The notes: generated by a model not told the origin, from the sequence alone. Positions 2 to 20,389 are shown, counted from the stretch's first letter. The stretch is 20,389 nt of DNA from an uncultured Gammaproteobacteria bacterium (GCA_964507075.1 CAZDOL010000008.1:9886-30274); one strand, 5' to 3'. Program-made: numbers and translations.

Positions 2-982
2 AAACTATTTAGTGGCATTCAGCCCACAGGAACATTACATATTGGTAATTATTTTGGAGCTATTAAAAACTGGGTTGAATTGCAAAAAAAATATGATAGC
101 ATTTTTTGCATAGTTGATTATCATTCTCTGACTAATTCTATAAATCCTGAAGAATTATCAAAACAAACCATAGAAATGGCCATGGATTTAATTGCTTGTG
201 GAATTGACCCTCTTAATTCAATCTTATTTGTTCAGTCATCTGTTCTCGAGCACACAGAACTAACCTGGATTTTAAGCTCTTTTACTCCTTTAGCTGAATT
301 ACAACGCATGACCCAATTTAAAGAGAAATCTCAAAAAAATATAAAAAATGTTAATGCTGGCTTACTATATTATCCAATTTTGATGGCAGCTGATATTTTA
401 CTCTATAAAGCAGAAGCTGTGCCTGTTGGCCACGACCAATTACAACACATAGAAATAGCCCGGACCATAGCTCGTAAATTCAATAAACAATTAGGAAAAA
501 CGTTTCCTGAGCCAAAGGGTGTTTTAACGTCCGCTCCACGCTTAATGAGCTTAATAAATCCCAAGGAAAAAATGAGTAAATCTGGAGGAAACGATAGCTA
601 TATTGCTTTATCTGACACTTTGGAAACAATTGAAAAAAAATTGTCTGTTGCAGTCACTGATCCAGCCAGAAAAATGAGAACAGACTCAGGCACGCCAACC
701 AAGTGTAATATTTATCAATTACATCAACTTGTTTCAGGCTCCCCTGATTTGAAATATATAGACGATGGATGCCGTCAGGCTAAAATTGGGTGTTTAGAGT
801 GCAAAAAAATGTTAGCTAAAAATATATTTACTGAATTAAAACCAATTCAAGAAAAGAAAAAAGAATTAGAAAAAAATCCTGAGGAGATAAAAAAAATACT
901 CCAAAATGGAGCTTTGAGAGCGCGAGAGATTGCTCAAAAAAATATGAAAGAAATTAAAAAGAAAATTGGATTATTTTCTTAA
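2..982 (+). CDS. trpS: Tryptophanyl-tRNA synthetase, 5'-truncated by the window edge
   Basis: The track ORF 80..982 starts on TTG, but its frame stays open to base 2. That extension reads KLFSGIQPTGTLHIGNYFGAIKNWVELQ, which contains the class-I HIGH-type signature (HIGN). The KMSKS signature is present (EKMSKSGG). A C-terminal four-Cys motif is also present (see findings). Confidence 0.93.
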   Translation, partial: KLFSGIQPTGTLHIGNYFGAIKNWVELQKKYDSIFCIVDYHSLTNSINPEELSKQTIEMAMDLIACGIDPLNSILFVQSSVLEHTELTWILSSFTPLAELQRMTQFKEKSQKNIKNVNAGLLYYPILMAADILLYKAEAVPVGHDQLQHIEIARTIARKFNKQLGKTFPEPKGVLTSAPRLMSLINPKEKMSKSGGNDSYIALSDTLETIEKKLSVAVTDPARKMRTDSGTPTKCNIYQLHQLVSGSPDLKYIDDGCRQAKIGCLECKKMLAKNIFTELKPIQEKKKELEKNPEEIKKILQNGALRAREIAQKNMKEIKKKIGLFS

Positions 983-1749
983 ATTTCTTCTAACTGTATT
1001 TTAGAACCAAACCATAGTCGAGCTAAAGCTTGGGTTTGGTTGTTGATATCAGAAGCAAAAAATTGATGACGAGACCCTTGCAAAAGGTTCTTTTTTATTC
1101 CTGGGTTATCTTTCAAAAATTCGGATAAATAAGAATTGATAACACTCATAGGGCTAATAATCTTAACTTGTTTTCCTATCTTAATTTGGATTATATCCTG
1201 TAATTGACAATAAACAGAATTAGTTAAGACGAGAGTGTCTATTTGCTTGCAATGTAATTCGTAAAGATAAGCCCTTAACACCTTTTTAGTAACTGCTTTT
1301 TTGATCCAACCCTCTCTAATTAAAGGCCCAAGCAAAGGAGTAGCCTTAGCTAAAACTTTAACTTTTTTGTCAATTTTATGAATGGCCTTGGGCATAAAAT
1401 CAGAATCAATAATTGCTTGAGAAGCAATTACCCCTATTCTTTTGTTTTGACTCTCTTTAATTGCTGAACCTATCAACCAATCTATAAGAGATACTATTGG
1501 AACCTTAATTTTAATGTTCTCTAATACAACAGCCATACATAGGTCAGAAACAATAATTAACTTAGCTCCTTTCTCAATTAGAAAATCAACTCCTTCTTCG
1601 GCACATTTTTTAATAGTCCTCTCCCCTTTATTATCTAAAGGTCCTCTTTCGGTATCCGAAAAATACAAAATCTGAAACTCAGGAAATTTATCAATAATTT
1701 CCTTAGCTAACATTAAACCACCTAAATTTGAATCTAAAATACCAATCAT
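979..1749 (-). CDS. murI: Asp/Glu racemase superfamily protein, glutamate racemase (MurI)-like but with altered catalytic motifs
   Basis: The blocks IGILDSNLGG, YFSDTERGP, KLIIVSDLCMA, RIGVIAS and DTLVLTNSVYC line up with the MurI layout (DSGxGG, GDTxxxPYG, xxACNTA, IGVLAT, LGCTHYP). Both catalytic-Cys positions are substituted. The stop codon overlaps the trpS stop codon. Confidence 0.7.
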   Translation of the reverse strand: MIGILDSNLGGLMLAKEIIDKFPEFQILYFSDTERGPLDNKGERTIKKCAEEGVDFLIEKGAKLIIVSDLCMAVVLENIKIKVPIVSLIDWLIGSAIKESQNKRIGVIASQAIIDSDFMPKAIHKIDKKVKVLAKATPLLGPLIREGWIKKAVTKKVLRAYLYELHCKQIDTLVLTNSVYCQLQDIIQIKIGKQVKIISPMSVINSYLSEFLKDNPGIKKNLLQGSRHQFFASDINNQTQALARLWFGSKIQLEEI

Positions 1750-1826: not shown

Positions 1827-2507
1827 TCAACAGACCTTTTGGGCAATAGTTATTAAGTTAAACCCCTTTCGGGAATCTTTTTGATTTCTGATTATTTTAA
1901 AACCCGCCTGTTTTGTTAATCTCCTAATTTCTCCCAGAGTAAAAACATGATGATAACGTTCTATTTTTTCTGGTCCTGCTTTCCATGGCACAAAAACATC
2001 TCGTTGTCCCCAAAACAAAGAATAAAGGTGATAACGCAGAATTAGTTTCCATTGCCTAAGATTCCAAACCGTAAAAATCAAAAAACCATTTGGCTTTAAA
2101 AGAGAAAAACAATTTTTTAAAATTTTAAGCCGTAATTTTTTTGAAGGAATGTGGTGCAAAAAAGCAACAGAGATTATAAGATCAAATTCATTTTTTGGAA
2201 GCTGAGCTTCCAAATCCAAGGCATCAGCTACAATAAATTTAGGTTTATTAAACTGCTCTCTAGCTATTTTAATCAACCCTTCGCTATTGTCAATGCCAAT
2301 ATATTCAACTTTTTTGTCTTTAAAAAGTTGATATAATCGCCCATTGCCACAACCCAAATCCAATATCTTCTGTCCGTCTTTGATATATTCTAAGGGAATT
2401 CTTGATTTATTCCAACTTTCTTTTCTTGTTTTAGAAAATGTTTCCGCAACAATTTGCCAATTCTCTTTATTTTGTTCCAAAATCTTCTGAACTCTTTTTT
2501 TGTTCAT
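1827..2507 (-). CDS. Class I SAM-dependent methyltransferase, Trm9/ALKBH8-MT-like (candidate tRNA cm5U34 methyltransferase)
   Basis: SAM motif I is present (ILDLGCGNG). The blocks FSKTRKESW, ISVAFLHHI, LIFTVWNL, RDVFVPW and RYHHVFTLGEI parallel Trm9 blocks recalled from yeast Trm9: FSQTRYKPW, ISIAVVHH, LIYCWALEQ, QDVFVPW and RYYHLYREGEL. The gene is divergent from elp3. Confidence 0.7.
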   Translation of the reverse strand: MNKKRVQKILEQNKENWQIVAETFSKTRKESWNKSRIPLEYIKDGQKILDLGCGNGRLYQLFKDKKVEYIGIDNSEGLIKIAREQFNKPKFIVADALDLEAQLPKNEFDLIISVAFLHHIPSKKLRLKILKNCFSLLKPNGFLIFTVWNLRQWKLILRYHLYSLFWGQRDVFVPWKAGPEKIERYHHVFTLGEIRRLTKQAGFKIIRNQKDSRKGFNLITIAQKVC

Positions 2508-2513
2508 AATTAC

Positions 2514-2541
2514 ATTCTATCAGAAATATAATAGTCAGCAA
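2514..2541 (-). promoter_or_regulatory. Candidate promoter of the Trm9-like gene (would give a leaderless mRNA)
   Basis: Read on the minus strand: -35 TTGCTG (2541..2536), a 16-nt spacer and -10 TAGAAT (2519..2514). Only 6 nt separate the -10 box from the ATG at 2507. Chance matches are common in AT-rich DNA. Confidence 0.35.
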
Positions 2542-2547
2542 GATTAG

Positions 2548-2585
2548 TTACTTGGGAGTTTACTTGGGAGTCGGACTCCCAAGTA
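2548..2585. repeat. Three copies of TACTTGGGAGT (two tandem, one inverted) forming a perfect 11-bp palindrome
   Basis: TTACTTGGGAGT occurs at 2548-2559 and 2560-2571, followed by CGG and then ACTCCCAAGTA at 2575-2585. The cluster lies 7 bp upstream of the putative -35 of the Trm9-like gene. Confidence 0.8.
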
Positions 2586-2644
2586 GATTCTCACATTTAG
2601 GAAAGATACAATGACTGAATTAGTATTATTTTTAACAAAATTGT

Positions 2645-2741
2645 AAAACAGCCAATTTCTTGCCAAATCAGAAAAATCGTCTTATAATCTACAGTTGACG
2701 CGGGTTTTAGAGAGCCAACTTAGTGGGACAGTCCCCTTTTT
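2645..2741 (+). repeat. Intergenic element A (promoter-like module + GACGCGG + GGGACAGTCCCC hairpin + T-run); candidate small RNA or elp3 leader
   Basis: It shares the ordered blocks AAAACAG, TGCCAAATC, a -10-like box, GACGCGG (2697-2703) and GGGACAGTCCCC (2725-2736) with element B. It ends in TTTTT (2737-2741). Confidence 0.6.
2660..2688 (+). promoter_or_regulatory. Candidate sigma70-type promoter at the head of element A
   Basis: It has -35 TTGCCA (2660-2665), a 17-nt spacer and -10 TATAAT (2683-2688). It lies about 115 nt upstream of the elp3 ATG. Confidence 0.5.
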
Positions 2742-2802
2742 CAAATATAGTAATGCGTTTTTTTATTGAATATTTGTACAGAAATGATAAGATTAGATTG
2801 TC

Positions 2803-4446
2803 ATGAAAAAAGAAATAGAAAGAAAAAAGATAAAAATAGTTCAGGAAATGGCCAAGGAAATAATCACCTCGGAAAAAGAATTTGAAAAAGTTAAACAGAA
2901 AACAATTGCTAAGATTAAAATAACTTTCCCAGCCAACAATGAACTATTGATGATATATAAAAAATTACGAAAACAGGATAATGTCCATCCTAATTTTTAT
3001 TTTGAAAAATTATTAAAAAAACGGCCAATCCGCAGTTTATCCGGGGTAGCAATTGTCGCTGTTCTTACTAAACCATGGCCTTGTCCTGGCAAATGCATCT
3101 ATTGCCCGACGGAAAAGAACATTCCCCAAAGCTATCTATCTGGTGAACCAGCAGTAGAAAGGGCTAAAACATTGAATTATGACCCTTATTTACAAACCAG
3201 AAAAAGAATTGAAATGTTGGAAAGAAATGGTCACCCAACCGACAAAATTGAACTAATTGTTATTGGTGGAACCTGGAGTTATTTGCCCAAACATTATCAA
3301 ACGTGGTTTATTAAAAAATGTTTTGACGGAGCTAATAATCAAAAAAAATCAGCTTCCAGCTTAGAAGAAGCACAAAAGAAAAACGAAAAAACCAAACACC
3401 GCTTAATAGGCATTACCTTAGAAACAAGGCCTGACTATATTACCCATTCTGAAATTAAAAGGATGAGGAAATTGGGTTGCACTAGAGTAGAAATAGGAGT
3501 ACAAATACTTGATGACCAAATACTAAAAATGAATCAACGTGGTCATTTAATTGACAAAACAATCAAAGCTACAAAATTACTAAAAAATGCTGGTTTTAAA
3601 ATATGCTACCATATTATGCCTGGTCTCTTGGGCTCAAACCCTAAACAAGATTTAAAAAAATTTAGAGAACTTTTCTCTAATCCTGATTTTCAACCCGATA
3701 TGTTAAAAATCTATCCCTGCGTAGTCACCAAAGGTTCAAAATTGTATAAGTTATGGAAAGAGAAAAAATATCAACCATATACCAATCGTCAGTTAACAAA
3801 TCTGCTTATCAAAATGAAATCATTGGTGCCGCCCTATGTCCGGATTAACCGCATTATCCGCGATATCCCCTCTTGGCAAATTCAAGGAGGAAGTAAAATT
3901 TCAAATATGCGTCAATATTTAAAAATTAGAATGAAAGAAGAAGGATTAGAATGTCAATGTATCCGCTGTCGAGAGATTAAATCAAGCCAATTTAAACTAA
4001 AAGACCTAAAATTAAAACGCCAAGAATATATAGCTTCTAATGGTCAAGAAATATTTTTGTCTTTTGAGGATTTGCACATAGACCAAAAATCTAATAATAG
4101 AAACTTACCCCCACACCTATGCATAGGTAGCGGGGGTAAATTAGCTGCTTTCTTAAGATTAAGATTATCTATTAATGATAAAAATTCGTCACAACAAAAA
4201 GCATTAAGAAAGAGTGCGATTATTCGCGAAATACACACTTATGGTCAACTTGTTTCCATAAACAAAAAAAGTAAAAAAGCCCTTCAACATCTTGGCTTTG
4301 GCAAAAAATTGATTCAAGAAGCAGAGAAAATTAGTAAAAAAGCGGGGTATAAAAAAATAGCCGTTATTGCTGGCATTGGGGTTCGTCCCTATTACCGCAA
4401 ACTTGGCTATCGCCTTGAAGATACTTATATGGTTAAGTCATTGTAA
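2803..4446 (+). CDS. elp3: Elp3-type radical SAM / GNAT enzyme (tRNA uridine-34 carboxymethylation family)
   Basis: The sequence RSLSGVAIVAVLTKPWPCPGKCIYCP carries a Cx4Cx2C radical-SAM cluster motif (3082-3105). Also present are ELIVIGGTWSY, ITLETRPDY and RVEIGVQILDD, plus a C-terminal GNAT-like segment (FLRLRL ... HLGFGKKLIQEAEKISKKAGYKKIAVIAGIGVRPYYRKLGY). The length of 547 aa is typical of Elp3. Confidence 0.88.
   Translation: MKKEIERKKIKIVQEMAKEIITSEKEFEKVKQKTIAKIKITFPANNELLMIYKKLRKQDNVHPNFYFEKLLKKRPIRSLSGVAIVAVLTKPWPCPGKCIYCPTEKNIPQSYLSGEPAVERAKTLNYDPYLQTRKRIEMLERNGHPTDKIELIVIGGTWSYLPKHYQTWFIKKCFDGANNQKKSASSLEEAQKKNEKTKHRLIGITLETRPDYITHSEIKRMRKLGCTRVEIGVQILDDQILKMNQRGHLIDKTIKATKLLKNAGFKICYHIMPGLLGSNPKQDLKKFRELFSNPDFQPDMLKIYPCVVTKGSKLYKLWKEKKYQPYTNRQLTNLLIKMKSLVPPYVRINRIIRDIPSWQIQGGSKISNMRQYLKIRMKEEGLECQCIRCREIKSSQFKLKDLKLKRQEYIASNGQEIFLSFEDLHIDQKSNNRNLPPHLCIGSGGKLAAFLRLRLSINDKNSSQQKALRKSAIIREIHTYGQLVSINKKSKKALQHLGFGKKLIQEAEKISKKAGYKKIAVIAGIGVRPYYRKLGYRLEDTYMVKSL
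4105..4139. repeat. Palindromic hairpin element D1 embedded in-frame in elp3
   Basis: The sequence is TTACCCCC-AC-ACCTATGCATAGGT-AGC-GGGGGTAA, with 8-bp outer arms and a perfect 14-nt inner palindrome. It is near-identical to the terminator hairpin at 9599-9626 (CCCCCACACCTAT then CATAGGT). Confidence 0.7.
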
Positions 4447-13133: not shown

Positions 13134-13322
13134 TCATTTTTTCAGCTTAAAAGCAAATTCGCTTAATAGGACCAGAAAACCACTTAATAAAACTATATAT
13201 AAAACAATTCTTATATCAAACCAAAATGAGACAAACCCGGGTTGAAAATCTTCTACCATACAAAGCACAAAAAAACAAACACCGCTCACAATAAATAAAT
13301 CTTTTAGAAACCTATAAAACAT
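13134..13322 (-). CDS. Hypothetical small membrane protein (2 predicted TM helices)
   Basis: This 62-aa protein has two hydrophobic stretches. Its ATG overlaps the TAA stop of the upstream 201-aa ORF (TAATG), which suggests translational coupling. Confidence 0.5.
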   Translation of the reverse strand: MFYRFLKDLFIVSGVCFFVLCMVEDFQPGFVSFWFDIRIVLYIVLLSGFLVLLSEFAFKLKK

Positions 13323-13927
13323 TATTCTTTTTTAATTTTGTTTATTAAATAATTTTTCATATCTGGGAGAATGTCTCTCAGTTCAACAGGAGACCTGTAC
13401 AACCATACTTTAATTTTCTTTATTTTAATTTCATGTCTGGCATTAGTTAGACCAGGCGCAGAAACCATAAACTCTAAAGCGTGATTGTTCATATAATTAG
13501 ACCCTGCCAAAAAATCAACTATTCCATTTTGCCATTCTTTGCTTATTGGATTTTCTAATGGCTTTAATTGAAAGTTCCAATCCAAGGGGTTAATTCTTTT
13601 TTGCATTAAAGCCAATTGTAGAATGGGGTGATTAGGATTTTGATAAGTAATCTCAATCTTCACTTTATTAAAAGTTCTGGGAATTTTTAGCTTAAAATAA
13701 GCTGGTTCAATAAAAATTCTTTGAAAACATTCTGCATCCCCTTCTCTCTCAATTAGCCCCACCCTATTTTCTGGATAAAAATCAGAAATCAAACGCGAGG
13801 AAGAACAAAAATCTTTCTCTAGAATTAGCTCTCCAGCCATTACTAAGTTTTTAGAAATCAACCAAATCCCTAACAATAAAACAATTAACATTAAAAAGAT
13901 TCTATATATTCTTAAAATATGTTTCAT
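13322..13927 (-). CDS. Hypothetical membrane-anchored/secreted protein
   Basis: This 201-aa protein has an N-terminal hydrophobic anchor (IFLMLIVLLLGIWLI). I recognised no motif. It lies in the same operon-like run as the 782-aa membrane protein. Confidence 0.7.
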   Translation of the reverse strand: MKHILRIYRIFLMLIVLLLGIWLISKNLVMAGELILEKDFCSSSRLISDFYPENRVGLIEREGDAECFQRIFIEPAYFKLKIPRTFNKVKIEITYQNPNHPILQLALMQKRINPLDWNFQLKPLENPISKEWQNGIVDFLAGSNYMNNHALEFMVSAPGLTNARHEIKIKKIKVWLYRSPVELRDILPDMKNYLINKIKKE

Positions 13928-17826: not shown

Positions 17827-18099
17827 TTAATTCATTCTTTCTTCTATCCCTCTCCTGAAGCATTCTGTTTCTTCGGTAGTTAGAACCTTTTTGTATTTGG
17901 TCCAAAAATATTTTTTAATTTCTGATAATTCTTTTTCAATAAAATCTGGGTCTTTTATTTTTTTGTATGTCAAATTCAGGTTTCCCAAAACCTCATCTAT
18001 CTCTTTACCACTAAAACCACCCTCATGCAAAGATTTAATCCATCCCGGAACATCATTGTCTGGAATTTGAACTTTTTTAATTTCACTAAAATTTTCCAT
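17827..18099 (-). CDS. Hypothetical protein
   Basis: This 90-aa charged soluble protein matches no motif I recognise. It lies directly downstream of ddl on the same strand. Confidence 0.55.
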   Translation of the reverse strand: MENFSEIKKVQIPDNDVPGWIKSLHEGGFSGKEIDEVLGNLNLTYKKIKDPDFIEKELSEIKKYFWTKYKKVLTTEETECFRRGIEERMN

Positions 18100-20011: not shown

Positions 20012-20389
20012 CTACCAAAAAATAAATATTCTCACGATTTTCCAGCAAAAACCAAAAATGGGATTAACAATATACTTTATTAAGGGATGTTCAAATCCAG
20101 CAAAATCAAATTTTGTATCTATTTGTTTTATGAACTCTCTGTCGCTAATTTGACGTGTCTTTTGAATCTTATGTCTTTTTTTTAAGATTTTAGGAACCTT
20201 AGACAAAGAAGCAAAAAAACTCTTAATTTTAGTTCCAAACCAACCATCCATTAAACTATAAGCCAAAATGCCTAATTCCATCAAAATCCAGAATGGGAAA
20301 ATTAAAATTAAGGTTGGTAGTTTATAAAACTTTAATAAAGTGAGGGGACGATTTCTTTCGCTCCAAAACCAACGATTTTTAGAAATAGC
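20012..20389 (-). CDS. C-terminal part of a glycosyltransferase-like (GT2-type tail) protein, 5' end beyond the window
   Basis: The track ORF starts on TTG at 20284, but the frame stays open to base 20389 (…AISKNRWFWSERNRPLTLLKFYKLPTLILIFPFWILMELGILAYSLMDGW…). This hydrophobic tail plus a KILKKRHKIQKTRQISDRE segment resembles the C-termini of family-2 glycosyltransferases. The family assignment is tentative. Confidence 0.55.
   Translation of the reverse strand, partial: AISKNRWFWSERNRPLTLLKFYKLPTLILIFPFWILMELGILAYSLMDGWFGTKIKSFFASLSKVPKILKKRHKIQKTRQISDREFIKQIDTKFDFAGFEHPLIKYIVNPIFGFCWKIVRIFIFW

Follow-up and report, generated by a model that had tools for sequence, protein, structure and literature searches.

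Eukaryotes, and since 2018 also one archaeon, are documented to carry modifications of the 5-methoxycarbonylmethyluridine (mcm5U) type at the tRNA wobble position. The methyl esterification that converts 5-carboxymethyluridine (cm5U) to mcm5U has been shown for yeast Trm9, and both eukaryotic and archaeal Trm9 require Trm112. The bacterial MnmE/MnmG system, which makes 5-methyluridine derivatives (xm5U34), likewise targets C5 of the wobble uridine, U34, with a presumed role in decoding; it is a GTPase/FAD enzyme pair that adds glycine- or ammonium-derived groups, and its enzymes and chemistry are unrelated to those of Elp3 and Trm9. Here we analyse a 20,389-nucleotide stretch of DNA (GCA_964507075.1, CAZDOL010000008.1:9886-30274; hereafter the window) in which an elp3 gene stands head to head with a methyltransferase gene of apparent Trm9 type, and we compare this pair with the systems described to date.

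Elp3 proteins of all three domains show tRNA-specific triggering of acetyl-CoA hydrolysis (PMC6367351), and the Elp3 of Methanocaldococcus infernus (MinElp3) forms cm5U in vitro, according to a passage citing that work in a review (PMC7663514). Haloferax Trm9-Trm112 produces mcm5U (PMC6144793), and the Elp3 and Trm9 genes are clustered in Sulfolobus solfataricus (PMC2584109). Bacterial Elp3 is confined to Dehalococcoides according to one review (PMC7663514), in contrast to the "numerous bacteria" mentioned in one 2026 paper (PMC13315578). Another review reports no bacterial genes resembling those of Trm112-dependent methyltransferases, Trm9 included, and limits archaeal Trm9 orthologues to Sulfolobales and Halobacteriales (PMC5372719). 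Our searches found no relevant literature connecting Elp3 with Patescibacteria or with the Candidate Phyla Radiation (CPR), Patescibacteria with MnmG, or the CPR with tRNA modification.

A methyltransferase assigned to the Trm9 family

The two open reading frames (ORFs) named in the original prediction for this DNA were recovered exactly. They are divergent and lie 295 bp apart:

1827-2507, minus strand: Trm9-family class I S-adenosylmethionine (SAM) methyltransferase, predicted tRNA cm5U34 O-methyltransferase, 226 amino acids (PDB searches, hidden Markov models, hhalign, AlphaFold2)
2803-4446, plus strand: Elp3, radical-SAM/acetyltransferase tRNA U34 cm5 synthase, 547 amino acids (TIGR01211 and PDB matches)

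We assign ORF 1827-2507 to the Trm9 family because five tests agree: PDB sequence search, family profile, fold, a Trm9 hidden Markov model (HMM) and profile-profile comparison. With phmmer, the best PDB match was Yarrowia Trm9 as solved in complex with Trm112 (chain 5cm2_Z; 75 bits, E = 5e-20). This alignment reaches the C-terminal DVxVPW and RYxH blocks, whereas the next PDB matches (≤58 bits) span the Rossmann core only. A profile of 35 family members also ranked Trm9 first in the PDB, at 94 bits. The AlphaFold2 model of the methyltransferase (predicted local distance difference test, pLDDT, 91; predicted template modelling score, pTM, 0.89) led Foldseek to the same Yarrowia chain (E = 1e-16, template modelling score 0.83 when normalised to Trm9, 28% identity). 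An HMM built from 60 fungal Trm9 sequences, many of them annotated as tRNA (carboxymethyluridine(34)-5-O)-methyltransferase, matched the window protein at 90.3 bits (E = 2e-26). Run against 3,777 ORFs, those of 57 loci and of the window itself, the same model gave 65 to 115 bits for all 36 full-length Elp3-adjacent methyltransferases and 43 bits for a truncated archaeal one, and the next, unrelated ORF scored 16.9 bits in a negative set that held few close class I methyltransferases. Finally, hhalign aligned the family profile to fungal Trm9 over 204 columns with a probability of 100% (E = 2.9e-41, 28% profile identity).

The peptide blocks in which a likeness to Trm9 had been noted are all present, at residues 24-32 (FSKTRKESW), 48-56 (ILDLGCGNG), 112-120 (ISVAFLHHI), 143-150 (LIFTVWNL), 169-175 (RDVFVPW) and 184-194 (RYHHVFTLGEI). 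The likeness itself is borne out by the five tests and by the catalytic residues described below. Pfam and NCBIfam returned generic class I matches only and could not decide the family, because neither library includes a Trm9 model. The NCBIfam small-molecule models all remained below their cutoffs (UbiG 53.7 against 103 bits, UbiE 47 against 216, BioC 48.7 against 185 and CpaM 68.8 against 180). An exhaustive search of 1.84 billion representatives yielded 273 clusters at E ≤ 1e-30 for the methyltransferase family; the source labels of relatives read "class I SAM-dependent methyltransferase", "UbiE" and, once, "alkB family protein 8".

Compared with eukaryotic Trm9 (yeast, Yarrowia and the methyltransferase domain of ALKBH8), the window enzyme is alike in fold and domain extent. 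A signature consisting of TR, HH, VW, PW, RYxH and a C-terminal N is common to the bacterial family and eukaryotic Trm9. In contrast to the eukaryotic enzymes, however, it is encoded beside Elp3 and lacks AlkB or RRM domains. It shares with the archaeal systems (Haloferax HVO_1032 with Trm112, and the Sulfolobus cluster) the combination of a prokaryotic Elp3 with a Trm9, which in Haloferax has been shown to yield mcm5U; one difference is the bacterial host.

Conservation of the catalytic residues

The catalytic signature of Trm9 was located by alignment with Yarrowia and fungal Trm9:

1842-2438, minus strand: Trm9 catalytic signature R28, D73, H118-H119, W148, Q152, W175, R184-Y185-H186-H187 and N217

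Eight residues are needed for the function of yeast Trm9 (ScTrm9): R29, D72, H116, W145, W168, R241, Y243 and N271 (Létoquart et al. 2015, PMC4678810). Seven of these are identical in the window protein (R28, D73, H119, W148, W175, R184 and N217). Among 32 non-redundant Elp3-adjacent methyltransferases, the equivalents of R29, D72, H116 and W145 are invariant (32/32), and those of N271 (30/32), W168 and R241 (29/32 each) are nearly so.

Elp3 and its lineage

The second ORF, 2803-4446, is a full-length Elp3 by its sequence matches. It scores 581 bits with the NCBIfam model TIGR01211 (ELP3; cutoff 350), which aligns protein residues 12-547 to model positions 2-522. The predicted architecture also held up in Pfam, with Radical_SAM, Radical_SAM_C and a borderline GNAT match (Acetyltransf_1, residues 492-536, 20.8 bits against a cutoff of 20.7). 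Among PDB entries, MinElp3 scored 461 bits (residues 23-546), the Elp3 of Dehalococcoides mccartyi (DmcElp3) 407 bits and eukaryotic Elp3 348 to 363 bits. The following features were mapped within the protein:

2803-3030, plus strand: basic N-terminal extension, residues 1-76, 21 K+R against 10 D+E (alignment)
3082-3105, plus strand: radical-SAM [4Fe-4S] motif CPGKCIYC (Cx3Cx2C), residues 94-101, with C94, C98 and C101
3952-3969, plus strand: CQCIRC zinc-binding motif (CxCxxC) in the inter-domain linker, residues 384-389, a motif of prokaryote-type Elp3
4075-4137, plus strand: window-specific insertion HIDQKSNNRNLPPHLCIGSGG, about 18-21 residues, in the lysine acetyltransferase (KAT) domain, residues 425-445 (alignment)
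4285-4302, plus strand: QHLGFG acetyl-CoA-binding motif (QxxGxG) in the GNAT/KAT domain, residues 495-500 (alignment and Pfam)

The N-terminal region of Elp3 has been linked to tRNA binding (PMC6367351). Every bacterial Elp3 ORF of our set has such an extension, with a median length of 75 amino acids. In the window protein it aligns with the MinElp3 N-terminus from residue 23, while the DmcElp3 alignment begins only at query residue 73. The radical-SAM motif had been read as Cx4Cx2C and needs correction: PWPCPGKCIYCP is Cx3Cx2C, the spacing of all 41 bacterial Elp3 ORFs in which the motif was found (37 non-redundant), whereas Cx4Cx2C is the archaeal form (5/5). The predicted GGTW is present at residues 155-158, and QHLGFG aligns with QHMGYG in MinElp3 and QHRGLG in DmcElp3. 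Note that the KAT insertion occurs neither in the MinElp3 and DmcElp3 structures nor in an aligned excerpt of 10 bacterial and two archaeal sequences, one of which is the 80%-identical Elp3 of locus L011.

The archaeal stand-alone Elp3 proteins (M. infernus and M. jannaschii) share with the window protein the basic N-terminus, the radical-SAM domain, the CxCxxC zinc motif and the KAT domain, and as for them no further Elongator subunits are expected. They differ in having Cx4Cx2C rather than Cx3Cx2C and GGTF rather than GGTW, in a five-residue insertion that MinElp3 carries after the Cys motif and in lacking the KAT insertion; the bacterial copies also form a clade of their own. Neighbour joining with bootstraps on 50 sequences and 456 columns (a simple distance tree from a limited sample) placed Patescibacteria Elp3 in one clade in 100 of 100 replicates; DmcElp3 joined this clade in none, its nearest relatives being archaeal sequences. 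We therefore rejected the grouping of CPR Elp3 and DmcElp3 as one bacterial clade that their common CPGKC motif would suggest. The structurally studied DmcElp3 resembles the window protein in its bacterial host, its identical CPGKCIYCPT and its domain order, but it lacks the N-terminal extension, gives the lower score of the two prokaryotic structures and falls outside the Patescibacteria clade. Elp3 had been described as only sporadic in bacteria. This does not hold within Patescibacteria, where it is common.

Conservation of the divergent gene pair

When each species was scanned with a sequence pattern in a single genome, 51 loci with Elp3 were retrieved, of which 11 are archaeal and about 40 bacterial; 37 of the bacterial loci were informative in having room upstream of Elp3. 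The methyltransferase lies directly upstream and divergent in 28 of these 37, and in one further locus at 3.4 kb. Reverse look-ups of family members with 38-88% identity found a divergent Elp3 next door on all seven informative contigs. The adjacency is therefore conserved in related genomes, amid variable neighbours. Within 6 kb of the pair, the 28 loci share Elp3 and the methyltransferase (28/28, by construction), MurF follows in 12 of 28 and other genes in at most nine. We sought a third conserved partner around the pair loci (Trm112, a thiolase or a tRNA gene) and found none, and the surroundings of the pair vary from locus to locus.

Two archaeal loci, from Culexarchaeum (L042) and Pacearchaeota (L043), also have Elp3 and the methyltransferase side by side, an adjacency that matches the Sulfolobus clustering. 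The pair is always divergent in the bacterial loci, whereas in L042 the two genes are co-oriented. At three loci (L004 and L006, gap 1.1-1.2 kb; L039, 3.4 kb) the pair is still divergent with extra DNA between the genes, which suggests insertions.

A predicted two-step wobble-uridine module and its alternatives

We think it probable that this pair is a two-step tRNA wobble-uridine module of the archaeal/eukaryotic type, in which Elp3 would form cm5U34 and the Trm9-like enzyme would then form mcm5U34. Both family memberships, the conservation of the catalytic residues and the strong conservation of the divergent pair were computed here, and from them we infer the products and tRNA substrates. 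Going by family membership, the stand-alone Elp3 would hold the tRNA by its basic N-terminus and cleave SAM at its [4Fe-4S] cluster, the KAT domain would supply the use of acetyl-CoA, and a carboxymethyl group would be placed on C5 of U34. In the second step, for which family and conserved residues are the guide, R28 and H119 would position the cm5U carboxylate, H118 and N217 would recognise the uracil, W148 would stack on it, and a methyl group from SAM would complete the methyl ester mcm5U34.

Several observations weigh against this assignment. In the profile search against the PDB, two uncharacterised archaeal structural-genomics methyltransferases reached 88 bits, a small margin below the 94 of Trm9; the alignment to 3sm3, as printed by that search, lacks the Trm9 signature residues. 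The position of the essential ScY243 is H186 in the window protein, and it varies across the family, with Tyr in 18 of 32 members. Five of the 35 members of alignment A1 have Gln or Glu in place of the essential second His (ScH116), and catalysis may thus not be uniform across the family; these HQ or HE sequences are P0053, P0064, P0096, P0110 and P0119, of which P0064 still adjoins Elp3. Eight of the 37 informative bacterial Elp3 loci have no methyltransferase within their flanks. DmcElp3, the only bacterial Elp3 studied, showed very weak activity, and xcm5U (5-carboxymethyluridine-type derivatives) has not been demonstrated in those bacteria (PMC7663514). No Trm112 gene was found in the window or as a recurring gene within 6 kb of the pair at the 28 loci, whereas eukaryotic and archaeal Trm9, among them Haloferax HVO_1032 (PMC6144793), depend on Trm112. 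In two proteins (P0338 and P0356) the Trm9-like domain is fused to a second, C-terminal domain of the WecG/TagA/CpsF glycosyltransferases, for which no tRNA role is known.

The last two points have a further side. Of six hydrophobic residues with which Yarrowia Trm9 contacts Trm112, two are replaced in the bacterial family, V59 by K or R (29/32) and F78 by D, E or N (26/32), while the equivalents of F116 and D117, also at the interface, are kept. Because the V59 and F78 positions have become charged or polar, there is a hint that the bacterial methyltransferase may work without Trm112, which would make a self-contained pair plausible. As for the glycosyltransferase fusion, two independent assemblies (L109 5001-6422 and L110 1700-3121) place one of the fused genes at a distance of 4 bp from a divergent Elp3. 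A separate WecG-type gene, an occasional neighbour, overlaps the 3' end of the methyltransferase gene at another locus (L027 330-1157). The fusion is probably a lineage-specific joining of neighbours, and we rejected the idea that it breaks the linkage to Elp3, with which the fused gene is still paired.

Could the pair act on U34 of tRNA and yet end at a product other than mcm5U, through another intermediate, another atom or a different xcm5U derivative, perhaps with the help of enzymes whose genes lie elsewhere? The unconserved ScY243 position, the subclade that has lost the ScH116 equivalent and the eight bacterial Elp3 loci without an adjacent methyltransferase all speak for it. So does the behaviour of other organisms: Haloferax without Trm9 does not accumulate cm5U, which shows that the chemistry branches (PMC6144793), and 5-carbamoylmethyluridine (ncm5U) is reported to accumulate in yeast trm9 mutants (PMC3110198). 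However, the residues proposed to place the cm5U carboxylate and the uracil ring are R29, H115/H116, W145, R241 and N271 of ScTrm9, and their equivalents are kept by the window protein and almost throughout the family. We consider a different end product unlikely.

It is very improbable that the methyltransferase belongs to the generic class I enzymes of the UbiE/UbiG kind, with a small molecule, a lipid or a precursor of the cell wall as its substrate, and that its place beside Elp3 is meaningless. Generic library matches, relatives named "UbiE" or "class I SAM-dependent methyltransferase", the rare WecG/TagA fusions and the cell-wall genes murI, murF and ftsI nearby in the window could be read that way. 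But every NCBIfam match is far under its cutoff (best 69 bits against 180), the fungal Trm9 HMM scores higher (90 bits) and is specific to Elp3-adjacent genes, and the protein does not group with generic enzymes. The adjacency holds at 37-50% identity in unrelated contexts, MurF being adjacent in only 12 of 28 loci, and the WecG-fused gene still lies 4 bp from Elp3. For a long time the annotation of Elp3 was histone acetyltransferase, a label that persists in PDB names. Direct evidence of tRNA products in bacteria is also lacking, which leaves room for Elp3 to be a protein lysine acetyltransferase or to act on another RNA, with the methyltransferase modifying the same non-tRNA target. We give this scarcely any credence, against the basic tRNA-binding N-terminus in all bacterial copies and the Trm9 uridine-recognition residues of the partner.

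The spacer and its insertion

The region between the two genes had been described as one shared 295-bp control region. The spacing stands, but it is not conserved: about 70 bp separate the two genes in the nearest relatives (L061, whose methyltransferase is 88% identical, and L011), and the window has gained an insertion of about 222 bp. The following features were recognised:

2508-2802, no strand: divergent spacer, ancestrally about 70 bp (2508-2547 and 2770-2802), interrupted by the insertion (alignment with L061 and L011)
2548-2769, no strand: lineage-specific insertion of about 222 bp, with a possible flanking 3-bp ATT duplication (alignment with L061 and L011)
2548-2593, no strand: hairpin formed by two tandem copies of TTACTTGGGAGT and an inverted copy, its core a 23-nt palindrome (folding)
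2660-2688, plus strand: sigma-70-like promoter match within the insertion, TTGCCA-17-TATAAT, directed towards Elp3 (11 of 12 consensus positions)

At the other loci, spacers between maximal ORFs are mostly -131 to +145 bp. In most genomes a few tens of bp separate the divergent genes, an arrangement consistent with a single short region regulating both. An Rfam search of the spacer and insertion returned no family, and we rejected the 295-bp spacer as a conserved regulatory region or RNA gene, given that its extra length is a lineage-specific insertion and Rfam gave no match. The putative promoter is the best sigma-70-like match of the spacer region, by consensus only.

The hairpin has a 19-bp stem (-28.2 kcal/mol, z = -5.75), and its 11-mer TTACTTGGGAGT occurs in three copies against 0.18 expected. 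The 23-nt palindromic core ACTTGGGAGTCGGACTCCCAAGT recurs exactly in 45 metagenome stretches of 35-52% GC, with variable self-complementary lower stems and up to three copies per contig. These stretches have no similarity to the insertion beyond the hairpin; we therefore rejected the view that the 222-bp insert is a repeat dispersed as a whole, since what recurs elsewhere is its hairpin of 23-40 nt only. At three loci (L076 7486-9006, L077 464-1985 and L100 31-1551), two inverted cores lie 1,498-1,499 bp apart with fragmented ORFs between them, one of which is a C-terminal fragment of a DDE_Tnp_4 transposase (41 bits, cutoff 24.8). Such a unit resembles the decayed remains of an insertion sequence whose ends bear hairpins, so the copy in the window may derive from such an element in miniature form.

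Host and neighbouring genes

The window is AT-rich (about 32% GC). The nearest relatives of both Elp3 and the methyltransferase come from metagenome-assembled genomes (MAGs) titled Patescibacteria or Parcubacteria, and for this reason we infer that the host is a Patescibacteria-group bacterium. Note that these taxon labels are record titles, some of them clearly mislabelled. Several MAGs with Patescibacteria-type Elp3 loci (L002, L004, L008, L011, L024 and others) bear the title "uncultured Gammaproteobacteria bacterium", or else "Candidatus Saccharibacteria". One of these records is a complete chromosome of 886 kb (OZ246416.1). The titles look unreliable, and relatives of the methyltransferase also bear the labels Bacteroidales or Actinobacteria.

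The window further encodes cell-division and cell-wall genes (murF, ftsI, an ftsL-like gene, rsmH, mraZ, ddl and a divergent murI) as well as trpS, ackA and rmuC. We rejected the reading of trpS at the window edge as truncated or frameshifted, since the gene runs off the 5' end of the window. One neighbour was recognised by structure-database search alone:

979-1749, minus strand: divergent MurI, downstream of the methyltransferase gene (PDB sequence search, 101 bits to 1zuw)

Pfam gave no match for this gene even at E ≤ 1, yet by its PDB match it is clearly a glutamate racemase homologue. Three further ORFs on the minus strand (13322-13927, 17827-18099 and 20012-20284; 201, 90 and 90 amino acids) had no Pfam match at E ≤ 0.01.

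Significance

The original prediction held that such a module had no bacterial characterisation. The bacterial host is indeed new, but the clustering has a precedent in Sulfolobus solfataricus (PMC2584109). In view of this literature, the pair adds a bacterial member to a two-enzyme pathway that is already known and is not a new kind of system. With more doubt than confidence, we also put forward a wider proposal: Patescibacteria may long have carried a stand-alone, Trm112-independent Elp3-Trm9 pair with a distinct Elp3 clade, which would replace MnmE/MnmG and bring mcm5U, or its 2-thiolated form mcm5s2U, to Bacteria. If this is true, the Patescibacteria pair would be a minimal two-protein system for rebuilding the whole mcm5U pathway.

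The conserved occurrence of an Elp3-Trm9 pair across many Patescibacteria lineages contradicts both review statements, on bacterial Elp3 (PMC7663514) and on bacterial Trm9 (PMC5372719). For annotation, about 270 representative clusters now labelled "UbiE" or "class I methyltransferase" call for correction. A compact and possibly partner-free two-gene system, suitable for expression in E. coli, would allow the full cm5U to mcm5U pathway to be studied without six-subunit Elongator or Trm112. The pair predicts that mcm5U-type chemistry occurs in the third domain of life, and it bears both on decoding accuracy in reduced-genome bacteria and on gene flow or common ancestry between Patescibacteria-type bacteria and archaea.

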